Part shown: positions 1 to 11,483 of the stretch, piece after piece
How the letters are laid out: the number at the start of each line of letters is the position of its first letter
Position numbering within the stretch: position 1 is the stretch's first letter
From: Armatimonadota bacterium
Lineage (GTDB): Bacteria; Armatimonadota; Armatimonadia; Armatimonadales; Armatimonadaceae
Reading direction: 5' to 3'
DNA length: 11,483 nt
Assembly: GCA_043754515.1 (NCBI GenBank)
Contig: JAYUUO010000162.1
Coordinates: 1 to 11,483 of the forward strand
Notes under the pieces: generated by a model
What the model saw: only the letters and a program-made list of their open reading frames with translations
Told to the model about the DNA's origin: nothing
Database searches by the model: none
Program-made: the position numbers and the translations under genes

Positions 1-192
1 ACAGGATTGTTCACGAACGGCGTGATAAGCCGCGTGATGGCGGTCGGAAGCACGAAAGGTTCTGGTGTCCCAGGCGACGCCCGACAGATGGTTGGAGGCT
101 TTGTTGAAGCGTTCCATCGTGTCGGCAAGTGCCGGCTCTGTCTCGGTTGTCGTACGCAACTTGCGAGTGACGATTTTCACGATCGTACTCAT
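1..192 (-). CDS. tnpB: TnpB-like RNA-guided endonuclease, N-terminal 64 codons (partial, runs off window)
   Basis: Manual translation from ATG at 192: MSTIVKIVTRKLRTTTETEPALADTMERFNKASNHLSGVAWDTRTFRASDRHHAAYHAVREQSC. This matches the TnpB N-terminal pattern (KL..T......L..TMERFN.A.N..S..AW....F.....H...YH.VRE). RuvC and zinc-finger regions are outside the window. Confidence 0.8.
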   Translation of the reverse strand, partial: MSTIVKIVTRKLRTTTETEPALADTMERFNKASNHLSGVAWDTRTFRASDRHHAAYHAVREQSC

Positions 193-201
193 GTCGCCCG
201 T

Positions 202-230
202 ATTGTATCACAGAAGGAGGCTTACTACAA
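202..230 (-). promoter_or_regulatory. Putative sigma70-type promoter of tnpB
   Basis: TTGTAG (230-225), 17-nt spacer, TACAAT (207-202) with extended TG (210-209), 9 nt before the ATG. The -35 lies inside the imperfect hairpin AGGAGG-CTT...AAG-T-CCTCCT (215-238). Confidence 0.6.
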
Positions 231-274
231 GTCCTCCTCGGCGTTTTCGCGGCGAAAATCGCGAGAAGGAGAAC

Positions 275-349
275 GCGCCGTTTCCTCCCCCGCCTGGACC
301 ACAAAACGCTCGCGTTTGTGTGAAGGCATGGAGGGGGTTTCCACGGCGC
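275..349 (-). repeat. Composite subterminal hairpin of the IS left end
   Basis: Nested stems (+ strand coordinates): GCGCCGT 275-281/ACGGCGC 343-349; CCCCC 287-291/GGGGG 333-337; GCCT 292-295/AGGC 324-327; CACAAAACGC 300-309/GCGTTTGTG 312-320 (one bulge). Confidence 0.75.
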
Positions 350-356
350 AATTTTT

Positions 357-2594
357 ATGAAACGTTACCTACTCTCATTCTGCCTCGCCACGCTCGGTGC
401 CGCCGCGCACGCGCAGGACGTGCCGCGCCTTTCCGGGGTCTTCCCCGCCGGTGCCCAGGCCGGACAGTCGGTCGAGGTGACCGTACACGGCTCCGCCCTG
501 CTCGGGGCAAGGTCGGTCTGGTTTAGCGGGCCGGGCGGCGCGATGGAGAACGGCATGACGGGCGAGATCGCGGGGGGGATTGTTTCCGTTGATGCCGCCG
601 CGAAGCCGCTCCATCAGGCGAAGTGCGCCAACTGCCACGAACTGCGCTCCCCCGCGAACCGCTCGCTTTCGCCGGAGCAGTGGGCACAGATCGTGGAGCG
701 TATGGTGAAACAGCATGCCGCGCCGCTGTCCGCCGACGAGGCCGCGAAAGTCACTGGCTACCTGCAAGCATTGACCCGCGCGGGCGAGTTGCACGTCAAA
801 ATCACCGTCCCGAAAGGCGCGCTACCGGGGAAGCGCGAACTGCGGATCGTTACCGCGAACGGCGTCACGACGGCGGCAAGTTTCTTGGTCGGCGCACTCC
901 CCGAACGACTCAGCGAGGGCGCGAAAACGACGCGAGACGCGCCGCAACCGCTGGCGTTTCCGTCCGTTGTTAACGGCATTCTGCGGGAAAGCGGGCAGCG
1001 CGACTGGTTCCGGTTCGCCGCGAAGAAGGGGGAGCGGATCACGCTCAACCTCGAATCGTTCCGGCTGAACGAGGTCGCGACGTCCTATTTCAACCCCGCG
1101 ATGTACGTCTACGACGCGAGCGGCGCGCAGGTCGCGAAATCAATCGGCGGCGACAGCATCCTGTACGGCACCGACCCGGTGATCGTCTGGGCCGCGCCCG
1201 CCGACGGGACGTACACGCTACTCGTGCGCGACCTGCTGTTCCACGGGAACCCGCTCTCGATCTATCGCTTGACGGCGGGCGTCGGCCTACCGGTGGACGC
1301 GCGGTTCACGACCGGCGTTATCGCGCGCCCCGGTGACACCATCACCCCGAGCCTCTGGGCATCCCTGCCGCTCCCGGCTGGCGTGACGGAGGCGACCATC
1401 ACGATCCCGGCGGGTCAGCCCGCCGGATCATTTATCGCGCGAACCCCGCTCGGCGACGTGCCGATCGTGGTCGGCGACGCGAAAGACGGGGGCGCAGCGA
1501 TCACCGGCGACCCCAAAACGGCTCCCGCGACCACGCTCCCCGCGACGTTCCACGGCGTGATTGCGCGCCCCGGCTCGCGCACCGACGTCGGGGCGCGGTG
1601 CGTATTCAAAGTAAAGACGACGCGACCGAACGTGGCGATCTACTTCACCGCGCTCGGTCTCGGCTCACGCTTGCAGCCCTGGGTGCATATATTCAAGCCC
1701 GACGGTACCTACGTGAGCGGCCATTATGAGGGACAACCGGCGGACTTCCGCTTCGGCGACGCGTTCAAGGAACCCGGCGAGTACGTGGTTCATGTCATGG
1801 ACGGGGAGAGCAAGAGCGGGGCTGACTACGGGTTCGCGTGGGAGGCGTATGACACAACGCCAGAGTTCTCTCTGACCGCCACGCCGGACGCGGTGAGTCT
1901 GCTACCCGGCGGCTCCGCCGTGATAACCGTTGTCGCGACGCGGCGCGAGAATATCGCCGGCGCGATCACGGTCACCGCGCGGGATCTGCCCATCGGCGTC
2001 ACCGCGCTCCCCTGTGTGATCCCGCCCGACTCCGACCGCGCGACGCTGGTGCTACAAGCTAGCAGGTATGCGGCGATGGGAGCCAGCCCGGTCGGCATTG
2101 AGGGCACTTACGCCCCTACGGGTGGCACGTCCGTCACGCGCCGCGCCGCGCCGCTGGAGATTTACCACTTCACAAACACCGGGGACCGGCAGATCCGGCG
2201 CGGGTTGCAGGCGGTCGCGGTCGCGAGTAGCGAGCCGTCGCCTGCCGTTTCGGTCGCCGTCGAAGGCGCGGAGAATGGGGTCGCGCTGGCGATAGACAAA
2301 GAGACCGAAATCAAAGTCAAGATCACGCGCCGCGAGGGGTTCAAAGGCGACTTGTTCGTGGTGCCGCTTAATTTCCCGCCCGGCGTCAGCTTGCGCGGTA
2401 ACACCTACGTCGCGGGGGACAAAAGCGAGGTGTCGCTCTCCCTCTACGCGGACGGCAACGCGCGGTTCTTGAAAGGCGAGCGACCCGCGAAGAACCTGCC
2501 GCCGATGACGATTGTGTTCGCCATCCGCCCGAACGGCGCGGAGGAGCGCGACTACATCGCCTGCACCGCGCCGATCCCGATCACGGCGAAGTAG
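357..2594 (+). CDS. Secreted PPC (pre-peptidase C-terminal)/Ig-like domain protein, planctomycete type, with an inserted monoheme cytochrome c domain
   Basis: 745 aa with a signal peptide (MKRYLLSFCLATLGAAAHA). N-terminal Ig-like motif VFPAGAQAGQSVEVTVHG...PGKRELRIVTANG...FLVGALPE. PPC motif VNGIL...RDWFRFAAKKGERITL...DPVIVWAAPADGTYTLLVRD...YRL, plus a second degenerate PPC and C-terminal beta-sandwich repeats. CANCH at residues 90-94 (nt 624-638). Confidence 0.9.
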   Translation: MKRYLLSFCLATLGAAAHAQDVPRLSGVFPAGAQAGQSVEVTVHGSALLGARSVWFSGPGGAMENGMTGEIAGGIVSVDAAAKPLHQAKCANCHELRSPANRSLSPEQWAQIVERMVKQHAAPLSADEAAKVTGYLQALTRAGELHVKITVPKGALPGKRELRIVTANGVTTAASFLVGALPERLSEGAKTTRDAPQPLAFPSVVNGILRESGQRDWFRFAAKKGERITLNLESFRLNEVATSYFNPAMYVYDASGAQVAKSIGGDSILYGTDPVIVWAAPADGTYTLLVRDLLFHGNPLSIYRLTAGVGLPVDARFTTGVIARPGDTITPSLWASLPLPAGVTEATITIPAGQPAGSFIARTPLGDVPIVVGDAKDGGAAITGDPKTAPATTLPATFHGVIARPGSRTDVGARCVFKVKTTRPNVAIYFTALGLGSRLQPWVHIFKPDGTYVSGHYEGQPADFRFGDAFKEPGEYVVHVMDGESKSGADYGFAWEAYDTTPEFSLTATPDAVSLLPGGSAVITVVATRRENIAGAITVTARDLPIGVTALPCVIPPDSDRATLVLQASRYAAMGASPVGIEGTYAPTGGTSVTRRAAPLEIYHFTNTGDRQIRRGLQAVAVASSEPSPAVSVAVEGAENGVALAIDKETEIKVKITRREGFKGDLFVVPLNFPPGVSLRGNTYVAGDKSEVSLSLYADGNARFLKGERPAKNLPPMTIVFAIRPNGAEERDYIACTAPIPITAK

Positions 2595-2677
2595 GTTAGT
2601 TGTCCGCGCGGTACCTCTCTCCGGGACGGAGAGAGGGTTGGGGGAGTGAGGTACCGCGCGGACAACTAACCTACTTC
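2588..2677. repeat. 30-bp perfect inverted repeat enclosing a BoxC-like hairpin (REPIN/MITE-like; may also act as a bidirectional transcript-end structure)
   Basis: GAAGTAGGTTAGTTGTCCGCGCGGTACCTC (2588-2617) is the exact reverse complement of 2648-2677. Internal stem CCTCTCTCCG-GGA-CGGAGAGAGG (2614-2636) is followed by GTTGGGGGAGTGAGG. Confidence 0.92.
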
Positions 2678-3936
2678 CCGAAATGAATCATCCCGAGCAG
2701 ACCGCGCCCGACTATGAACACGACGAGTGCTCCGATCAGCGCGAAGCCGACCATGAACACGATGTTGGTTTGATCCACGGAAAGCTTGCGCCCGCGCACT
2801 GCCTCAACGCCCATCAGTGCCAGGTGCCCGCCGTCTAGAATCGGGATCGGGATCAGGTTGAACAAGCCGAGGGAAAGCGATAGTTGCGCCATCAGGAAGA
2901 CGACGGACACCGGGCCCTCCTGGGACGCCTTGTTGGAAGCCTTGAGAATCTCGATGGGACCCCCGACGCTCCGCCCCAGATCCTTCGGGCGGGCGAACAG
3001 TGCGCGCATGGTATTGAACCAGACGCCGGTGATGTGGTTGCCGAACGCGAACGATTCAGGCAGACTCACCCGCTTAGCCAGCTCTACTTCCTCTCCAGGG
3101 ACGATTCCGATCAGCCCAATTGACGGACGCTTGCCTTCGGGATCTGGCGCGGACACGGGGGTGACGGACACGGAGCGCGCCACTCCCTTCGCGTCGCGCA
3201 CGGACAGCACCAGCGGTTTACCCGCTGAGTTGTGCAAGGTCGCGACCATCGCCTCGCCGTTCGTGACCGGCTCCGCGTTGATTGCGAGTATCCGGTCTCC
3301 TTTCGCGAGTCCGGCGCGGGCAGCAGGTTGGCCTTTGGCCACCTCGGCGATCACGTTGGTGGGTCTCTTATTTGGCAGTCCGAGGGTCGCCCCGATCAGG
3401 CAGAACACGAGCCAGCCGAGTAAAAACGAGAACAGGGGGCCGCCCAGAATCACCCAGAACCGCTGGTAGATCGGCCGGCTGTTAAACCCGTCGGGATCCT
3501 TGCCCGAAACTTCGGCGGTCTCCTGCGCCAGAGACGAAAGGTTGGTGGTCTCGAAGCCGGACGGCTCGTGAGCAGGCGCGACGGCGTCCGGCGCGGGTAC
3601 TACCGGGCTCGGCTCCGTGTTCTGCGAGAGCACCGCGCCGGTGGGCACCGGTTCAGGGGCCGGGATTTTGGGGTGACTCGCGCCGGTCATGCGGCTCTCC
3701 ACGGCATCCTCGATCTCCATTCCTTTAATGCGGACGAAACCGCCGAACGGCAGGGCGCGCAGGTTATACTCCGTCTGGCCGTCGTAGAAGAGCCGTAGTT
3801 TGGGGTTCCCTATGCCGATGGAGAACTCCTCGACCTTCATGCGGAAAAGTTTCGCGAACAGGAAGTGCCCGAGTTCGTGGAAGAACACGAGCACGATCAG
3901 AATCATTAAGTAGGTGAGTACGCCGATGACGCTCAT
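2671..3936 (-). CDS. rseP: RIP metalloprotease RseP (peptidase M50, one PDZ domain)
   Basis: 421 aa; HELGH zinc motif, EFSIGIG, LPFGGFVRI, GGPLFS, PDZ (PAARAGLAKGDRILAIN), NLIPIPILDGGH. Lies 21 bp downstream of dxr, the usual synteny. Confidence 0.95.
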   Translation of the reverse strand: MSVIGVLTYLMILIVLVFFHELGHFLFAKLFRMKVEEFSIGIGNPKLRLFYDGQTEYNLRALPFGGFVRIKGMEIEDAVESRMTGASHPKIPAPEPVPTGAVLSQNTEPSPVVPAPDAVAPAHEPSGFETTNLSSLAQETAEVSGKDPDGFNSRPIYQRFWVILGGPLFSFLLGWLVFCLIGATLGLPNKRPTNVIAEVAKGQPAARAGLAKGDRILAINAEPVTNGEAMVATLHNSAGKPLVLSVRDAKGVARSVSVTPVSAPDPEGKRPSIGLIGIVPGEEVELAKRVSLPESFAFGNHITGVWFNTMRALFARPKDLGRSVGGPIEILKASNKASQEGPVSVVFLMAQLSLSLGLFNLIPIPILDGGHLALMGVEAVRGRKLSVDQTNIVFMVGFALIGALVVFIVGRGLLGMIHFGK

Positions 3937-3957
3937 AAATTAGCCGTTAAATACCTT

Positions 3958-5136
3958 TTACTTGTTTTCGCGGACGTTTCCCCGTCCGATGATCTCCGCG
4001 ATCGTCGCGCGCGCCGCGCGGTCCGCGCCCAACACCGCTTCCAGCGTGTCCGCCGGGACGGATAAGTGACTCTCACACACCCGCGCGACCAGCGGACAGA
4101 TGTCGGCGAAGCGAATCGCGCCCGCCAGGAACGCGGCGACCACCGCCTCGTTCGCCGCGTTCAGCGTCGCCGGGGCAGTGCCGCCCCGCGCGAACGCCGC
4201 GCGGGCTAGTCCGATCGCCGGGAACCGCTCGTTGTCCGGCTCCTCGAACGTCAGCGCGCTCATCATCGCCGGGCGAAGTCGCGGCAGGTCGGTGTCGGGT
4301 TTGTCCGGGTACGTCAGCGCGATCTGAATCGGTAGACGCATGTCGGGCGGCCCGAGTTGCGCGAGCAGGGCACCGTCCGTCATCTCCACGAACGAGTGAA
4401 CCACGCTTTGCGGGTGTACGACCACGGACACCGTGTCCAGCGGCACGCCGAACAGGTGACACGCCTCGATGATCTCCAGCCCCTTGTTCATCAGGGTCGC
4501 CGAGTCAATCGTGATCTTCCCGCCCATGCGCCAGGTCGGGTGCTTCAACGCGTCCTCGATAGTCGCGCCTTCGATCTGCTCCCGCGTCCAGGTTCGGAAC
4601 GGGCCGCCAGACGCCGTGATGTAAAGATGCGCGATGTCATCAGGGACATGGTAGCCGCGCGTACATTGGAACAACGCGGAGTGTTCGGAGTCCACGGGCA
4701 GAATCTCCGCGCCGCTCTCCCGCGCCGTGCGCATCACCAGTTCGCCCGCCGCGACCAGCACCTCCTTGGTAGCAATGCAGAGGCGTTTCCCGGCGCGTGC
4801 CGCCGCGAGCGTCGCCGCCAGGCCCGCCGCGCCCGCGACCGCGATCACCACCGTGTCCGCCTCGGGGAGCGTCGCGAGCGCGGTCAGCGCGTGGTCGCCG
4901 CCGTGCGCGGAAACGCCCGGCGGGAGCGCGCGTCGGAGCGCGGGCAACTCGGAATCGTCCGTGACCGCGACGTGCGACGCCCCGGTCGCCCGCGCCTGCT
5001 CCGCGAGCAGTGATACGTTGCGGCGCGCCGCTAAAGCGATGATCCGTGCCCGATGCCCGCCAAGGCGGCGTACGACGTCCACGGTCTGTGTCCCGATGGA
5101 GCCGGTCGCCCCCAGCACGACGATATTTCTGGTCAC
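3958..5136 (-). CDS. dxr: 1-deoxy-D-xylulose 5-phosphate reductoisomerase
   Basis: 392 aa, GTG start; VLGATGSIG, PVDSEHSA, TASGGPF, HPTWRMGGKITIDSATLMNKGLEIIEA, HPQSVVHS, DMRLPI, NAANE. Confidence 0.97.
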   Translation of the reverse strand: MTRNIVVLGATGSIGTQTVDVVRRLGGHRARIIALAARRNVSLLAEQARATGASHVAVTDDSELPALRRALPPGVSAHGGDHALTALATLPEADTVVIAVAGAAGLAATLAAARAGKRLCIATKEVLVAAGELVMRTARESGAEILPVDSEHSALFQCTRGYHVPDDIAHLYITASGGPFRTWTREQIEGATIEDALKHPTWRMGGKITIDSATLMNKGLEIIEACHLFGVPLDTVSVVVHPQSVVHSFVEMTDGALLAQLGPPDMRLPIQIALTYPDKPDTDLPRLRPAMMSALTFEEPDNERFPAIGLARAAFARGGTAPATLNAANEAVVAAFLAGAIRFADICPLVARVCESHLSVPADTLEAVLGADRAARATIAEIIGRGNVRENK

Positions 5137-6218: not shown

Positions 6219-7111
6219 TTACGGTCGCGACGGCCCCGGATCAACCGGCTTAGGGTCGCCGCTTGGCTTAGTGCCGTCGCCTGGCTTGGGCGCATCCCCT
6301 GGTTTCGGCGCGCCGGTGGTGGTGGCCGATTGCCGCAACTGCGTGATACGGTCGCGAACCGCGGCGTCGTCGTCGGCTTTCGGTAACAGTTCGAGATACT
6401 TCTCGAAATCGCTCGCCGAGTTCGTGTTGTCGTTTAATAGCGCGTAAGCGTTGCCGCGTTTGTAAAAACTCTCGGCATAACTCGGGTCGAGCTAGATCGC
6501 GGACGTATAGTCGGGGATGGCTTTATCATACTGCTTCAACTGGACGTAGGTAAAACCCCGGTTGAGAAACCCACCCCGGTTCTTGGGATAATCACGTACC
6601 GCCTTCGTGTAATCCGCGATCGCGTTGTCATACTGCTTCAGGTTCGAAGTAGGCGATCCCCCGGTCGTAGAACGCGTCCTCGAACACCGGATCAATCCCG
6701 ATCACAGCCGTTAAATCGGAGAGCGCCTTGTCGTTCTCGATTCAGCGTGAGGTACGTATTTCCCCGGTTGAAGAAGGGAGACGCACTTTTGGCGTCGAGT
6801 GCCAACGCCTTGTTGTAATCCGCAATCGCCTTGCTATACTGTTTGAGTCCGTCATAGCAGATGCCACGGCGGTTATACGCCTCTGCGTAACCGGGACGCA
6901 GACGGATGGCGGTCGTATACCGGGCGGTGGCCTTCTTGTATTGCCTAATACTTTCGAGGTCTTCCCCCTTGCTAAACGCCGCGTCGGAGGCCGATTTATT
7001 AGAAACGGCTGGCTTCGTTTTCTTGACGACTGGCTTCGAGGCGATAGCAGGAACCGATGCCAGCGCGCCGACGACGAGGAGCAGAACGGCGGAGCGGGAA
7101 AGGTGCCCCAT
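6219..7111 (-). pseudogene. Secreted tetratricopeptide-repeat protein (6 TPRs plus Pro/Lys/Gly tail), disrupted by two +1 frameshifts and an in-frame TAG
   Basis: Signal-like start MGHLSRSAVLLLVVGALASVPAIA at 7111 (alternative ATG 7162). Removing one base near 6739 and one near 6645 and reading through TAG 6494-6492 gives consecutive 34-aa TPRs, ending at TAA 6221-6219. Confidence 0.85.
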
Positions 7112-7331
7112 GATCCGGTTCGGCGTGGAATGGGGACTGAGTGAATTTTTGTTTGGACGCATGTTGTGACGCTTTCAGGGGTCACGCGAAGGGGAGCGGC
7201 GAATAACTCGCGGGATGATCTCGCCTTCCCGATGCCCATAGCTCATCGTACCGTGACGGCACTCTCTCCAAACCAGATTTATCAGGCCCACGTGGAAGTT
7301 CGTGGCGACGCGCCATATCGCCTAAACCGGA

Positions 7332-7771: not shown

Positions 7772-9373
7772 ATGGCTCCTTTCTCTTTCTCGACCGAGCC
7801 GGACGCGGTCGGTGTGTGGGGTCAGATCACGCTAACCGCGACCGCGACCGATCCTCATCCCGCCGATGTAAACCCGTTCACCGACCTGGTGCTTTACGGC
7901 ATCTTTACCGACCCTTCCGGCGATAGCACCACCGTGAGCGGCTTCTGCGACGATCGGGACGGCGGGACGTTCCGCGTCCGCTTCATGGCGCGAATAGCCG
8001 GGGTGCATGAATACCGGCTCACCCTCTCGGCGCGGGGCGAGGTTGCGGCGACGGCGCGGGGCGCGTTCACAGTGAATCCGAATCCCGCCGCTTTCGCGCC
8101 GGTCGTGCCCGACCCCGAACATCCGTGGCATTTCGTTCATCGCGGCACGAACCAGCACTTCTTCCAGAACGGCGTCACGGCGTACGCCATCCTCGGACTG
8201 CGCGAGGACCTGATGATCCGCGCCCTGGACCGGCTCGCGGGGCACGGCGTGAACCGCATCCGCTTCGCGCTTTCGATGGCGCGGGTGCCGAGCGCGCGGG
8301 AGTGGTTCGAGCCGGTGGACGCGTCGGACGACTTCACGTTCCTGCTCAACCCCTGGGTCGCCGCCGCCCCCGAAGCCGTGGCCGTGCCCGGCTTCGACAC
8401 CACCCGCTTCAACATCGCGTTCTGGCGAAAGGTGGAGCGGCTTCTGACGGCGTGCCGGGAGCGCGGCATCGTGGCGTCCATCATCTTCTACGTTGACGGC
8501 GTGCGCCCCGGCGTTGATCCGTTCAGCAAGGAGCACGCGGGCGGGGACGACGAGAAGCGGTTCTACGCCTACGCCGCCGCGCGCCTGTCGTCGTTCTCGA
8601 ATATCCAGTGGGACGTCACGAACGAGTACCGCCTGTTTCGGGACGAGGCGTGGGTGCGCGAGATGGCACCGTTCCTGAAAGCCTGTGACCCGTATAATCA
8701 CACAATGTCTGTACACGGGCACGGCGACTTCCGCTTCTACGGCGAGCCGTGGTGCGACTACGCCTGCTACCAGTCGTGGGACGAGTACGGCGGCTATGAC
8801 TTCATGATCAAGAACCGCGCCCTGCAAATCGCGTCGGGGGCGATCGTGCCGCAGGTGAACGAGGAGTACGGCTACGAGGATCACTACCCGCAGGGCTGGG
8901 GCGAGTCGCGCGTCGCGCCGTCTCGGGACGCGGAATCCCGGCGGCGGATCGCGTGGGAGATTTACATGGCGGGCGGCTACCAGACGACCGGCGAGACGGC
9001 TCCCCCGCTCGGCGGCTGGCTGAACGGCCTCGCGCCGGACGACCACGCCGCGATGCTGGACGGCAACCACCGGGCACGCCGGTTCTTCGAGTCGTTCGAC
9101 TGGTGGCGGTGCGACCCGTCCCCAGACGTGATCGCGGAAGGCTCGGCGAAGGCGTACTGCCTCGCCGAACCGGGCAAGGTGTACGCGCTCTGGCTCCCGA
9201 ACGGCGGATCGGTGACGCTGAACCTGCCCGAGGGCGCGTCGCTTTCGGCGCGGTGGTACGACCCGCGCTCGAACGCTGGATTCGGGGAGGCGATGCCGAT
9301 GAATGGCGGGGCCGCGCCGCTCACGTCGCCGAATAGCGATGGCGACTGGGCGGTTCTGGTTCGCGCGGTTTAG
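7772..9373 (+). CDS. DUF5060 + DUF4038 (apiosidase-like, GH140-related) glycoside hydrolase with C-terminal beta domain
   Basis: 533 aa. N-terminal NPFTD...FTDPSG....VSGFCD..DGGTFRVRFM (DUF5060-like). TIM-barrel motifs GVNRIRF, FNIAFWRKVE, WDVTNEY and VNEEYGYE. C-terminal YCLAEPGKVYALW...ARWYDPR...DWAVLV. Confidence 0.88.
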   Translation: MAPFSFSTEPDAVGVWGQITLTATATDPHPADVNPFTDLVLYGIFTDPSGDSTTVSGFCDDRDGGTFRVRFMARIAGVHEYRLTLSARGEVAATARGAFTVNPNPAAFAPVVPDPEHPWHFVHRGTNQHFFQNGVTAYAILGLREDLMIRALDRLAGHGVNRIRFALSMARVPSAREWFEPVDASDDFTFLLNPWVAAAPEAVAVPGFDTTRFNIAFWRKVERLLTACRERGIVASIIFYVDGVRPGVDPFSKEHAGGDDEKRFYAYAAARLSSFSNIQWDVTNEYRLFRDEAWVREMAPFLKACDPYNHTMSVHGHGDFRFYGEPWCDYACYQSWDEYGGYDFMIKNRALQIASGAIVPQVNEEYGYEDHYPQGWGESRVAPSRDAESRRRIAWEIYMAGGYQTTGETAPPLGGWLNGLAPDDHAAMLDGNHRARRFFESFDWWRCDPSPDVIAEGSAKAYCLAEPGKVYALWLPNGGSVTLNLPEGASLSARWYDPRSNAGFGEAMPMNGGAAPLTSPNSDGDWAVLVRAV

Positions 9374-9493: not shown

Positions 9494-10726
9494 CTACGCG
9501 GCCTTCACGAAGCGGCGTCGGCTTACCATCCCTAGTACGCCGAGCATCCCGAAGCCGACGCCGACCAGCGAACCCGCGCCGCTTTCGGGAACGGTGACGG
9601 CACCACGGGATAGGCTCATCGTTCCGGCGTAGATGCCGTGGTTGTCGCCGTTGAACGTGTCGTTGACCGCGAGGTACAGGCTCCCGCCGCCCGCCGGTGC
9701 CGTGATAGTGGTGTCGGTGCCGACGTAGAACCAGTCGGCACTGTTCGCGGCGGGGTTCGGGTTGAACGTCCCAACTATCGCCCCGGCGCGGATGGTCGCG
9801 AGGTCGAGCGTGTCCGTAGTCGCCTTACCCGCGAACTCGAAGGCGGATGAGTTGACGTCGTAGTTCGTGCCGCCGCCGACATAGTGGTTGATGCCGTCGC
9901 CTTTGCCGCTCACGACTGGGTACACCGCGCCGTTGTTAGCGTAAGCGAACACGCCGGTCGCGGGCGCGGTTAACGAGCCGTCCGCGCGGACTTGATAGCG
10001 GCTGTCCACCAGGTCGCCGTTGCCGCCGAACTGCAAGCGGATCTGCTCGCCGCCCGCGAACGTGCCGACCTTTTGCTTGTTATCCGCGCCCGCCGTGAGG
10101 CCGAGCGACTGCGACAGCGTCTGCACTCCTGTTAGCTCATTCACCGATACGTTGTCGAGACCGATATATTGGGCTCCCGCCGTGCCCGTCAGGGTGAGCG
10201 CGGTCGTCGCGTCGGTCGCGGTGAAGGTCATCACCCTTTTTGACCATGACTGACCGGCTTGCGGCGCGTCGAGGTTGAACGTGCTGGAAACGCCGCCCAC
10301 GCTCGCCTGAATGCCCACCGATGATCCGTATGCCGTGTTCACCCCGAAGTCGAACGCAAGGCTGTACCGATGACCCGCGACTGTGGCGAGCGTCTGCGTC
10401 ACGCCGCCGAACGGCGCGGCGTCGTGGTAGCCAGTCAGGTCGAGCGAGAACTTGCCGTCGGTCGCGGAAACACCGTTGTAGTTGTTAGGCGTGTTGATCC
10501 AGGCTAACTCGGCGTTCGTGGTCGTCCAGCCGGGGATCGTGGTCGAGCCGAGGGGGACGGACTCGCCGCCGTTGCTGCCGGTGTTGTCAACCCAGGTGTT
10601 ATTGAGGTTCTCGAACGAACCGTTAGTGACCAGGTCGGCGGCGAATGCGGACGGGGCGGCGAGTGCGGCGACGGCGAGCGCGGCGGCGAATAGGCGCGGC
10701 GACAGGGTTGTGAATGATGAGCGCAT
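9494..10726 (-). CDS. PEP-CTERM sorting-signal surface protein with DUF642-like domain and a possible PA-IL/LecA-like domain
   Basis: 410 aa; signal peptide ending APSAFA; LVTNGSFE...SLDLTG...VTQTLATVAGHRYSLAF...FTAT...LDNVSV (DUF642-like); second domain GAIVG...WFYVG...GSLYLAVNDTFNGDNHG; C-terminus VPESG + hydrophobic helix + RRR. RBS GAAAGG upstream. Confidence 0.9.
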   Translation of the reverse strand: MRSSFTTLSPRLFAAALAVAALAAPSAFAADLVTNGSFENLNNTWVDNTGSNGGESVPLGSTTIPGWTTTNAELAWINTPNNYNGVSATDGKFSLDLTGYHDAAPFGGVTQTLATVAGHRYSLAFDFGVNTAYGSSVGIQASVGGVSSTFNLDAPQAGQSWSKRVMTFTATDATTALTLTGTAGAQYIGLDNVSVNELTGVQTLSQSLGLTAGADNKQKVGTFAGGEQIRLQFGGNGDLVDSRYQVRADGSLTAPATGVFAYANNGAVYPVVSGKGDGINHYVGGGTNYDVNSSAFEFAGKATTDTLDLATIRAGAIVGTFNPNPAANSADWFYVGTDTTITAPAGGGSLYLAVNDTFNGDNHGIYAGTMSLSRGAVTVPESGAGSLVGVGFGMLGVLGMVSRRRFVKAA

Positions 10727-10795: not shown

Positions 10796-11155
10796 TTAAG
10801 CGGTTTTGCGGGCGCGGCGCACCACAAGACCGCCAAGCAAAGCGACACAGGGGAGCGCTAGGGCGAACGTTCCGCTTTCTGGCACGGCGGTGGCAACCCG
10901 CGACACGGTGCCGGAAACCGCTGTTACGTCGCTATTGCTGTCGCCGAAACGGTTGACGACGAAATCGAGCGATTCGCCCGCCAGCAGACCAGTGGACGTG
11001 TTGGCGGTGAATGTGTCGGGGTTCGACGACCCGTGCCCGCCTCCGCCCAGCACCGCGCCCGAAAGTGCCGTGGCGATGCCGGTTTTGTACAAGCGCACAT
11101 CCACGCCGTTGCTGTTGGCGAAGAACGCGCACAGTTGCCACGTCGCGCTGACTGT
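10796..11155 (-). pseudogene. 5'-truncated PEP-CTERM protein gene remnant
   Basis: The last ~119 aa of track ORF 10796..11413 look genuine (TVSATWQL...NGVDVRLY...LLAGESLDFVVN...VPESGTFALALPCVALLGGLVVRRARKTA). The first ~85 aa lack a signal peptide and run through the regulatory repeats. The 5' boundary is approximate. Confidence 0.65.
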
Positions 11156-11239
11156 GTGTCGCTTCGCCCGGCGCGACCGGGGCGATTGTGCTGTCGGCGG
11201 TTGGCGGGGGAAGCGCCCGATTGCGATCCCCTGGACGCC

Positions 11240-11375
11240 ATTATAGCGGGGAGGTCTTAGCAAAGTCTTAGCAGAATCGCACTGTTGCGCGGCTATTTTT
11301 TGCAAACGGTTTGCGGGATAGGCGTCAAAAGCGAGCGAAGTCTTAGCAGACGTGATTTTTCGGGACTTTTTTGCA
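11240..11375. promoter_or_regulatory. Direct-repeat operator-like region with a - strand -10 box
   Basis: GTCTTAGCA at 11254-11262, 11265-11273 and 11340-11348; TATAAT on the - strand at 11245-11240; TTTTTTGCA at 11296-11304 and 11367-11375. Confidence 0.55.
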
Positions 11376-11483
11376 GCCGTGGTAGCGTACTGCCTCATCA
11401 AGAAATCCAACATTGGGGCATCGTTGCCTCACGAACAGAATCTTACCCTATCGTGTTTCCCCCGCCGACTTTGACAAGGGAAA

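Follow-up and report, generated by a model that had tools for sequence, protein, structure and literature searches.

A probable, apparently decayed tnpB-only IS200/IS605-type element at a TCAT target in an Armatimonadota operon overlap

Known systems and the present locus

In the insertion sequence (IS) IS608 of Helicobacter pylori, four-base guides lying 5' of subterminal hairpins select the cleavage tetranucleotides (AAAG with TTAC and GAAT with TCAA), the third base stays unpaired, and insertion leaves no target duplication, as described in the sections cited here of He et al. 2011 (PMC3201880) and Morero et al. 2018 (PMC5934647). The target-adjacent motif (TAM) of TnpB is the TnpA target in ISDra2 (Karvelis et al. 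2021, PMC8612924, in part) and the flanking target in ISGst2/5 (Meers et al. 2023, PMC10055086, in part). Here, we compare with these systems a locus at the start of contig JAYUUO010000162.1 (C162) of an Armatimonadota bacterium. The window, i.e., the whole stretch of DNA analyzed, comprises the first 11,483 bases of this contig, from a bin of 5.13 Mb (313 contigs, 92.7% complete). The locus very probably represents a non-autonomous, tnpB-only IS200/IS605 (IS1341-type) element that was targeted to TCAT/TGAC via the guides GAAA/CAAG, sits at the ATGA overlap of an operon, and has since decayed.

With IS608, the window element shares the placement of its guides, the unpaired third base, and the absence of a duplication; it differs in its pairs (GAAA/TCAT and CAAG/TGAC), in having no tnpA, and in a guide-target spacing that varies within its clade. 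The ISGst1-5 elements of Geobacillus stearothermophilus resemble it in being tnpB- or iscB-only, in having TAMs and transposon-encoded motifs (TEMs) that covary with DNA guides, and in giving rise to gene-less derivatives. However, the ISGst5 TAM TTCAT belongs to an IscB, the TAM of TnpB2 is TTTAT, and the ISGst elements are active, whereas the window copy looks decayed (cited parts of PMC10055086). The TnpB of ISDra2 and AmaTnpB are RNA-guided RuvC nucleases whose TAM matches the TnpA target (PMC8612924 and PMC10278001, in part), and TCAC, the TAM of AmaTnpB (Nety et al. 2023, PMC10278001), is TCAT except for the very base that switches in the window clade. Both proteins are distant in sequence, the best PDB matches to the homologue P0001 being Cas12f/TnpB at E values of 1e-28 or weaker. 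Guide/target covariation, the link between TAM and target, and the prediction of TAMs from element ends are already published.

Left end, target, and empty site

The element runs from position 356 to the window edge on the - strand, beside a host gene on the + strand:

1..192, - strand: 5' end of tnpB (64 codons), by identity to homologues; the contig stops before the remainder, which falls in a two-copy repeat left unassembled
202..210, - strand: extended -10-like box, by sequence and similar boxes in related loci; missed by a consensus scan
275..349, - strand: left-end structure, a subterminal hairpin (337-287) within an outer stem (349-341 with 280-275), by folding; same layout in the paralogue on contig C123
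338..341, - strand: left guide GAAA (+16..+19), by sequence and by position-4 guide/target covariation in relatives
356, - strand: first base of the element (left end), by an empty site in the same-genus genomes G001 and G002
357..360, - strand: target and left cleavage site TCAT (ATGA on the + strand), with which the window gene starts and an upstream WD40-PA14 gene formerly ended
357..2594, + strand: host gene, 745 amino acids, with PPC and haem-binding-like domains, now parted from its upstream operon partner

In G001 and G002, the WD40-PA14 gene lies directly upstream of the homologue of the 745-amino-acid gene with no element between them, and G002 has the same ATGA overlap. In the genome studied here, contig C276, which begins with a tnpB 3' end, carries in its flank a 598-codon WD40-PA14 frame without a stop of its own; the window's ATGA supplies that stop. 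Because of this empty site and this open frame, we conclude that the element entered 3' of TCAT at the stop/start overlap without duplication. The WD40-PA14 gene now terminates a few codons inside the right end of the element. An earlier note, made from the letters of the window, had placed the left end at 356 and the target TCAT at 360-357. The empty site bears out the former independently, and ends, empty site, and reconstruction agree on the latter; the C123 element, too, starts right after TTTCAT. The guide GAAA, too, is where the note had seen it, at 341-338 and thus at +16..+19 for a left end at 356. The hairpin described as following it (337-287) was recovered by folding, region 360-275 folding far better than shuffled sequences (z of -4.1; 0/200). 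Between the left end and the tnpB ATG lie 164 nt, with no tnpA. Relatives of the host gene are present in 14 of the family's 18 other genomes. Position 356 is spanned by contigs from two other studies, and the insertion is therefore common to related populations.

The tnpB fragment is a 64-amino-acid open reading frame (ORF) at 192..1 of the - strand, open at the contig edge and without a stop in the visible frame. Alone, these residues reach no curated TnpB cutoff, profile searches giving only PilJ (Pfam, E of 0.086) and TIGR01765 (NCBIfam, E of 0.15), yet the TnpB-like N terminus read here by the earlier note holds on homologue searches: four full-length homologues, among 32 candidates, are 75-82% identical to the fragment. 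The same genome encodes a complete 379-amino-acid TnpB (C123:6530-7669; NF040570, E of 9e-51) with 75% identity to the fragment over 60 amino acids. The RuvC D-E-D residues and the zinc finger are kept in full-length homologues and complete in C123 and P0001 (P0002 is truncated), while the tnpB 3' ends on C276 and contig C281 show the third Asp and one Cys pair. Named TnpB relatives are nearly all from Armatimonadota. The tnpB promoter that had been proposed survives in part: a consensus scan returned no sites in 150-420, but an extended -10-like box (TGn plus TACAAT, 210-202) lies 9 nt 5' of the tnpB ATG, and a -10-like hexamer occurs 4-12 nt before the tnpB start in 17/26 related loci under a permissive pattern. 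The tnpB transcript may be leaderless or near-leaderless.

As in IS1341-type elements, a tnpB-family gene lies between the ends with no tnpA inside, hairpins with 5' guide tetranucleotides are present at both ends (at the right in C281 and C123, C276 being partly deleted), and insertion is 3' of a 4- to 5-nt target without duplication. In the mechanism that we propose, a Y1 HUH transposase supplied in trans would have bound the end hairpins, with GAAA as the left guide pairing with TCAT and CAAG as the right guide pairing with TGAC, and the single-stranded element would have been pasted 3' of TCAT without duplicating it. The insertion fell on the ATGA stop/start overlap of a two-gene operon, in antisense orientation, and kept both frames essentially whole. 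With an omegaRNA from the right end, TnpB, while intact, would cleave empty sites (TCAT followed by the right flank), favoring retention; the copy appears to have decayed since.

Guide/target covariation in relatives

The left-end set comprised 52 distinct loci with upstream DNA, at 38% identity or more, of which 28 matched; in 26, TCAT or TCAC lay 11-32 nt upstream. The fourth bases of guide and target were A-T in 14 of these 26, G-C in 11, G-T in one, and A-C in none, so that the two bases track each other in 25/26 loci. Right ends could be parsed in 52 of 66 cases, as CAAG-TGAC (43), AAAG-TTAC (8), and CAAG-TGAT (1). The IS608-type guide rule invoked by the earlier note is thus upheld by the empty site and by position-4 covariation. 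Its claim that GAAA predicts TCAT named the right target but asked too much of the guide, which fixes only TC-N-T, the third base being unpaired (PMC3201880, in part). The +16..+19 placement, taken as a match to IS608, turned out to be incidental: guide and target are 12-16 nt apart in 23 loci and 28-30 nt apart in three, and exactly 15 nt apart, as in the window, in only two of the 26. Likewise, the longer motif TTCAT is no rule in this clade, T at -5 preceding TCAT in 8 of 15 TCAT loci.

Copies and right ends

Contig C304 shares its first base with the window and aligns with it apart from a 148-bp deletion (155-302), which takes out the promoter, the start codon, and half of the left-end hairpin; 2/154 positions differ. 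The 154/303 joint of C304 was found in the likely source read run and in a run of another study. In the former, the shared unitig has a depth of 52 versus 26 on the flank, which together with the shared contig ends implies two near-identical copies whose middle was collapsed out of the bin. A 334-nt two-copy unitig runs off the window edge, and the middle of tnpB had no match in the bin contigs.

C276 and C281 both begin with the 3' end of tnpB and both finish in CACTGAC, as does C123, the right end closely following the tnpB stop. The right guide is CAAG in C281 and C123, and C281 also keeps the right-end hairpin; in C276, a 41-nt deletion removed the right guide and the 5' hairpin arm (fold z of -0.05). 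A right end in TCAA or TCAN had been expected, which these ends, in TGAC with guide CAAG, contradict. An empty site for C304/C281 was not found in G001-G003, where the region is not conserved, and a 99-codon ORF in the C304 flank had no convincing Pfam match.

Further IS605-type sequences were seen in this genome. C123:6426-7719 (L002, L009) is a complete tnpB element (379 amino acids, D-E-D and zinc finger) directly before the start codon of a downstream gene, which from a sequence motif we take to be cytidylate-kinase-like; this element is the best in-genome candidate for TAM measurement. C141:9222-9305 (L003) is a gene-less remnant of ~85 nt with a TCAC target and a GATG guide. Its one hybrid hairpin combines a left-end 5' arm with a right-end 3' arm and ends in TGAC, and its loop holds a 26-nt insertion in the position that corresponds to the window's. 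C244:6900-8320 (L004) is a broken tnpA-tnpB element with a 37-amino-acid TnpA remnant, a frameshifted tnpB with stops, and a right end of AAAG/TTAC. Ends of other IS605-type families occur at C54:16240-16439, C259:1-100, C258, and C237 (left contexts TTAC and TTAT/TGAA-type; right ends TCAC), some of them gene-less.

Activity, decay, and TAM

The window copy looks like a decayed relic that is probably inactive, because of private changes in its protein, the guide deletion in C276, and the presence of only a TnpA remnant. In the 64 amino acids, we count nine changes at positions where all four homologues agree, versus one to five per homologue in the same test, with a cluster at 49-64. Four TnpA queries matched only the 37-amino-acid remnant on C244, and the four Y1 matches of the genome amount to a split gene, a divergent gene, and this remnant; no intact cognate TnpA was found in the bin. 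With regard to an omegaRNA scaffold, the right end that matches the empty site (C276) lacks 41 nt, including the guide and a hairpin arm.

We infer that TCAT would be the TAM of the intact nuclease, given the published match between TnpB TAMs and TnpA targets, and an intact TCAT-type relative would probably accept it. We found no measured TAM for the window's TnpB clade in the literature and no TnpB with a TCAT TAM in the openly accessible literature; the text of three supplement files of PMC10278001 contains no TCAT, the TAM logos there being figures. The element itself adds little, and its interest is in the Armatimonadota clade of TnpBs to which it points, where TCAT and TCAC have been switched in nature. 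Whether the protein-read TAM follows the switch of the DNA guide or reads TCAY could be shown with intact members (C123, P0001, and P0003), which could also add a compact editor with a TCAT TAM.

Two further Y1-type genes were noted, namely, a split Y1 transposase-like gene at C279:5123-5460 and, following a trpB-like gene, a divergent gene with a Y1 domain at C71:14139-14624 (L005, L006).

Points against the proposed reading and alternative explanations

One further feature bears on the weighing of these results:

357..370, + strand: 14-nt flank common to the window and the second copy, C304; the 14-mer occurs twice in the genome

Several points weigh against a decayed, TCAT-targeted element as read here. 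The TCAT/TCAC label needs only two changes on a tree of 25 of the proteins from the related loci plus three outgroups, and the covariation therefore represents two events, not 25. The search patterns were fixed as GA-N-R / TCAY and NAAG / T[GT]A[CT], with one free position per end, so that a TCAA right end could not have been parsed, and 24 of the 52 loci gave no usable left-end match. C162 may today join C281, with its intact right end, rather than C276, and recombination between copies could have swapped the flanks. With a bin that is 92.7% complete, TnpA may be absent from the bin only. Rfam returned no omegaRNA match and one chance-level hit, and with the middle of tnpB unassembled, the catalytic view of the window copy is confined to the third Asp and one Cys pair on C276 and C281. 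Finally, C304 shares its flank with the window up to 370. Other copies had been expected by the earlier note to end at the same boundary, and C304 departs from this in part, yet the empty site fixes the left end at 356. On the simplest reading, C304 perhaps derives from the window copy by a non-canonical event that would have carried the flank along. Extended guide-target pairing as a source of the shared 14 nt was rejected, as inspection revealed no complementary stretch beside the guide or the hairpin.

It is unlikely that the window copy is still an active nuclease, joined to the C281 right end and cutting next to TCAT. C162 has kept an intact start codon and -10 box, no stop interrupts the visible frame, C281 retains the guide CAAG and its hairpin, and the low divergence of the two copies (2/154 positions) would make both young or homogenized. 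However, the changes at invariant positions cluster at 49-64, the right end that goes with the window flank according to the empty site is the deleted one of C276, and C281 has two insertions in its presumed omegaRNA region. In addition, no TCAT followed by 10 nt of any of the three guides was found in the assembly.

There is, similarly, slim probability that elements of the TCAT type actively seek out start codons and provide the gene they displace with translation signals. Of 15 TCAT loci, three had no parsed right end and one lay at a contig edge; among the 11 informative reconstructed sites, five count as start-like, compared with 12.1% in a sample of 3000 ATGA sites (binomial P of 0.006). 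However, 3776 of 23305 ATGA junctions (16%) lie outside long ORFs, and loss of intragenic insertions alone would then predict ~40-50% start-like survivors; survival bias therefore suffices. A Shine-Dalgarno-like motif precedes the host ATG in only 1/26 loci, and there is no maintenance of an open reverse frame. Active start-codon targeting with an element-supplied ribosome site was accordingly set aside as unsupported.

A true left end at 370, with TCAT internal, would accord with C304, whose junction is real in the likely source read run, and with the flexible boundary choice reported by Meers et al. (PMC10055086, in part), but it is most improbable and is largely ruled out by the empty site. 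The stretch 357-370 forms the first codons of a host gene that is conserved, and it is nearly identical in G001, where the element is missing; no tetranucleotide 5' of 370 is common to the two copies, and C123 and its relatives begin right after TCAT.

Hairpin micro-insertions

Besides its apparent decay at the protein level, the window element is interrupted by two short insertions, which the earlier note had not remarked on:

242..265, no strand assigned: 24-nt bulged-hairpin insertion, a 24-nt alignment gap versus the C123 paralogue; related copies elsewhere in the genome
297..322, no strand assigned: hairpin insertion of 26 nt within the left-end hairpin's loop, absent from C123, in which the C304 deletion ends; related copies in C141, C143, C54, and C138

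C281 carries a further insertion of 27 nt. Another, of 24 nt, is common to the three right regions and also interrupts sequences in C125, C149, C217, and C256 that, by a motif, we take to be IS630-like. These bulged hairpins measure 22-30 nt, are species-specific in sequence, and occur in prophage DNA as well as in the tnpB element. When paralogues are aligned, the insertions stand out as clean gaps of 24-30 nt. A strict descriptor (4-bp stem, 1-nt bulge, A/T tract, and GC core) finds 68 copies in the genome versus 10 in a codon-block shuffle, which is the valid control, since a reversed-genome control is symmetric with the descriptor and hence uninformative. Thirty-nine of the 68 copies sit in nine contigs totaling 177 kb, and all three of these that were checked contain phage genes (terminase, portal, integrase, endolysin, and replication initiator). 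A 2-nt flanking repeat is seen in 10/22 and 9/18 copies of two families (permutation means, 3.4 and 2.6; 0/20,000), although four of the nine in the second family are tandem and not independent. Three hairpin patterns have 14, 7, and 11 matches here versus 1, 0, and 0 among 70 further genomes from the class. A variant of its own is present in five copies in G002, with single matches in four other genomes, and the strict descriptor matched 2 of 69 tnpB loci of other genomes, both from the family of the genome studied here. The deletions in C304 and C276 each have one breakpoint inside a hairpin insertion.

No mobilizing enzyme was identified for these insertions, and none of the 68 listed hairpins lies beside the Y1 genes at C279 and C71. 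Elhai et al. are said to have described small dispersed repeats in Nostocaceae in 2008. The repetitive extragenic palindromes (REPs; PMC3733652 and PMC8266576, in part) and such repeats are the nearest known counterparts of the insertions, which resemble them in being imperfect palindromes of 20-30 nt, species-specific, in frame inside genes, and nested in other hairpins. In contrast to both, the insertions seen here vary in their 2-nt flanking repeats and are present in tens of copies instead of hundreds, mostly within prophage and IS DNA. No common GTAG- or CGTC-type tag is evident among the 68 listed copies, and no repeat-flanked gene for a REP-associated tyrosine transposase (RAYT) was found. 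We offer only tentatively, as a rather doubtful possibility, that the hairpins are an undescribed class of ultra-small mobile DNA: they would be inserted via a 2-nt staggered cut by some enzyme and would prefer hairpin-rich or single-stranded mobile DNA (IS605 ends, omegaRNA regions, and prophages), where they may seed deletions and disable TnpB elements as parasites of, or a brake on, the family's mobilome. They would matter more if that enzyme were found.

At C225:7183-7250 and 7955-8035 (L133), inverted tandem arrays of a 25-nt hairpin surround a single gene, phage-like and containing collagen-like repeats. The possibility of a REPtron at C225 was considered and rejected, as it is a phage-like gene that the arrays flank. 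C138:661-9707 holds what appears from its sequence to be a Type I-E-like CRISPR-Cas set immediately followed by a prophage-like region, with 11 strict hairpins in the contig. Hairpin insertions are also present in IS605 elements of other genomes (L016 on G002:C171, L024 on G010:C130, L014, L017, L082, and L092), where they lie in tnpA, between tnpA and tnpB, or in the loops of end hairpins.

Remainder of the window

On the - strand at 2671-5136, a peptidase M50/PDZ (rseP-like) gene and a 1-deoxy-D-xylulose 5-phosphate (DXP) reductoisomerase gene form an ordinary housekeeping pair. Tetratricopeptide-like sequence is spread over several short - strand frames at 6300-7240 and may be a pseudogene. 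An ORF at 10796-11413 with a PEP-CTERM-like tail, its 5' part seemingly out of frame or non-coding, could be a paralogue, now broken, of the DUF642 gene at 9494-10726.

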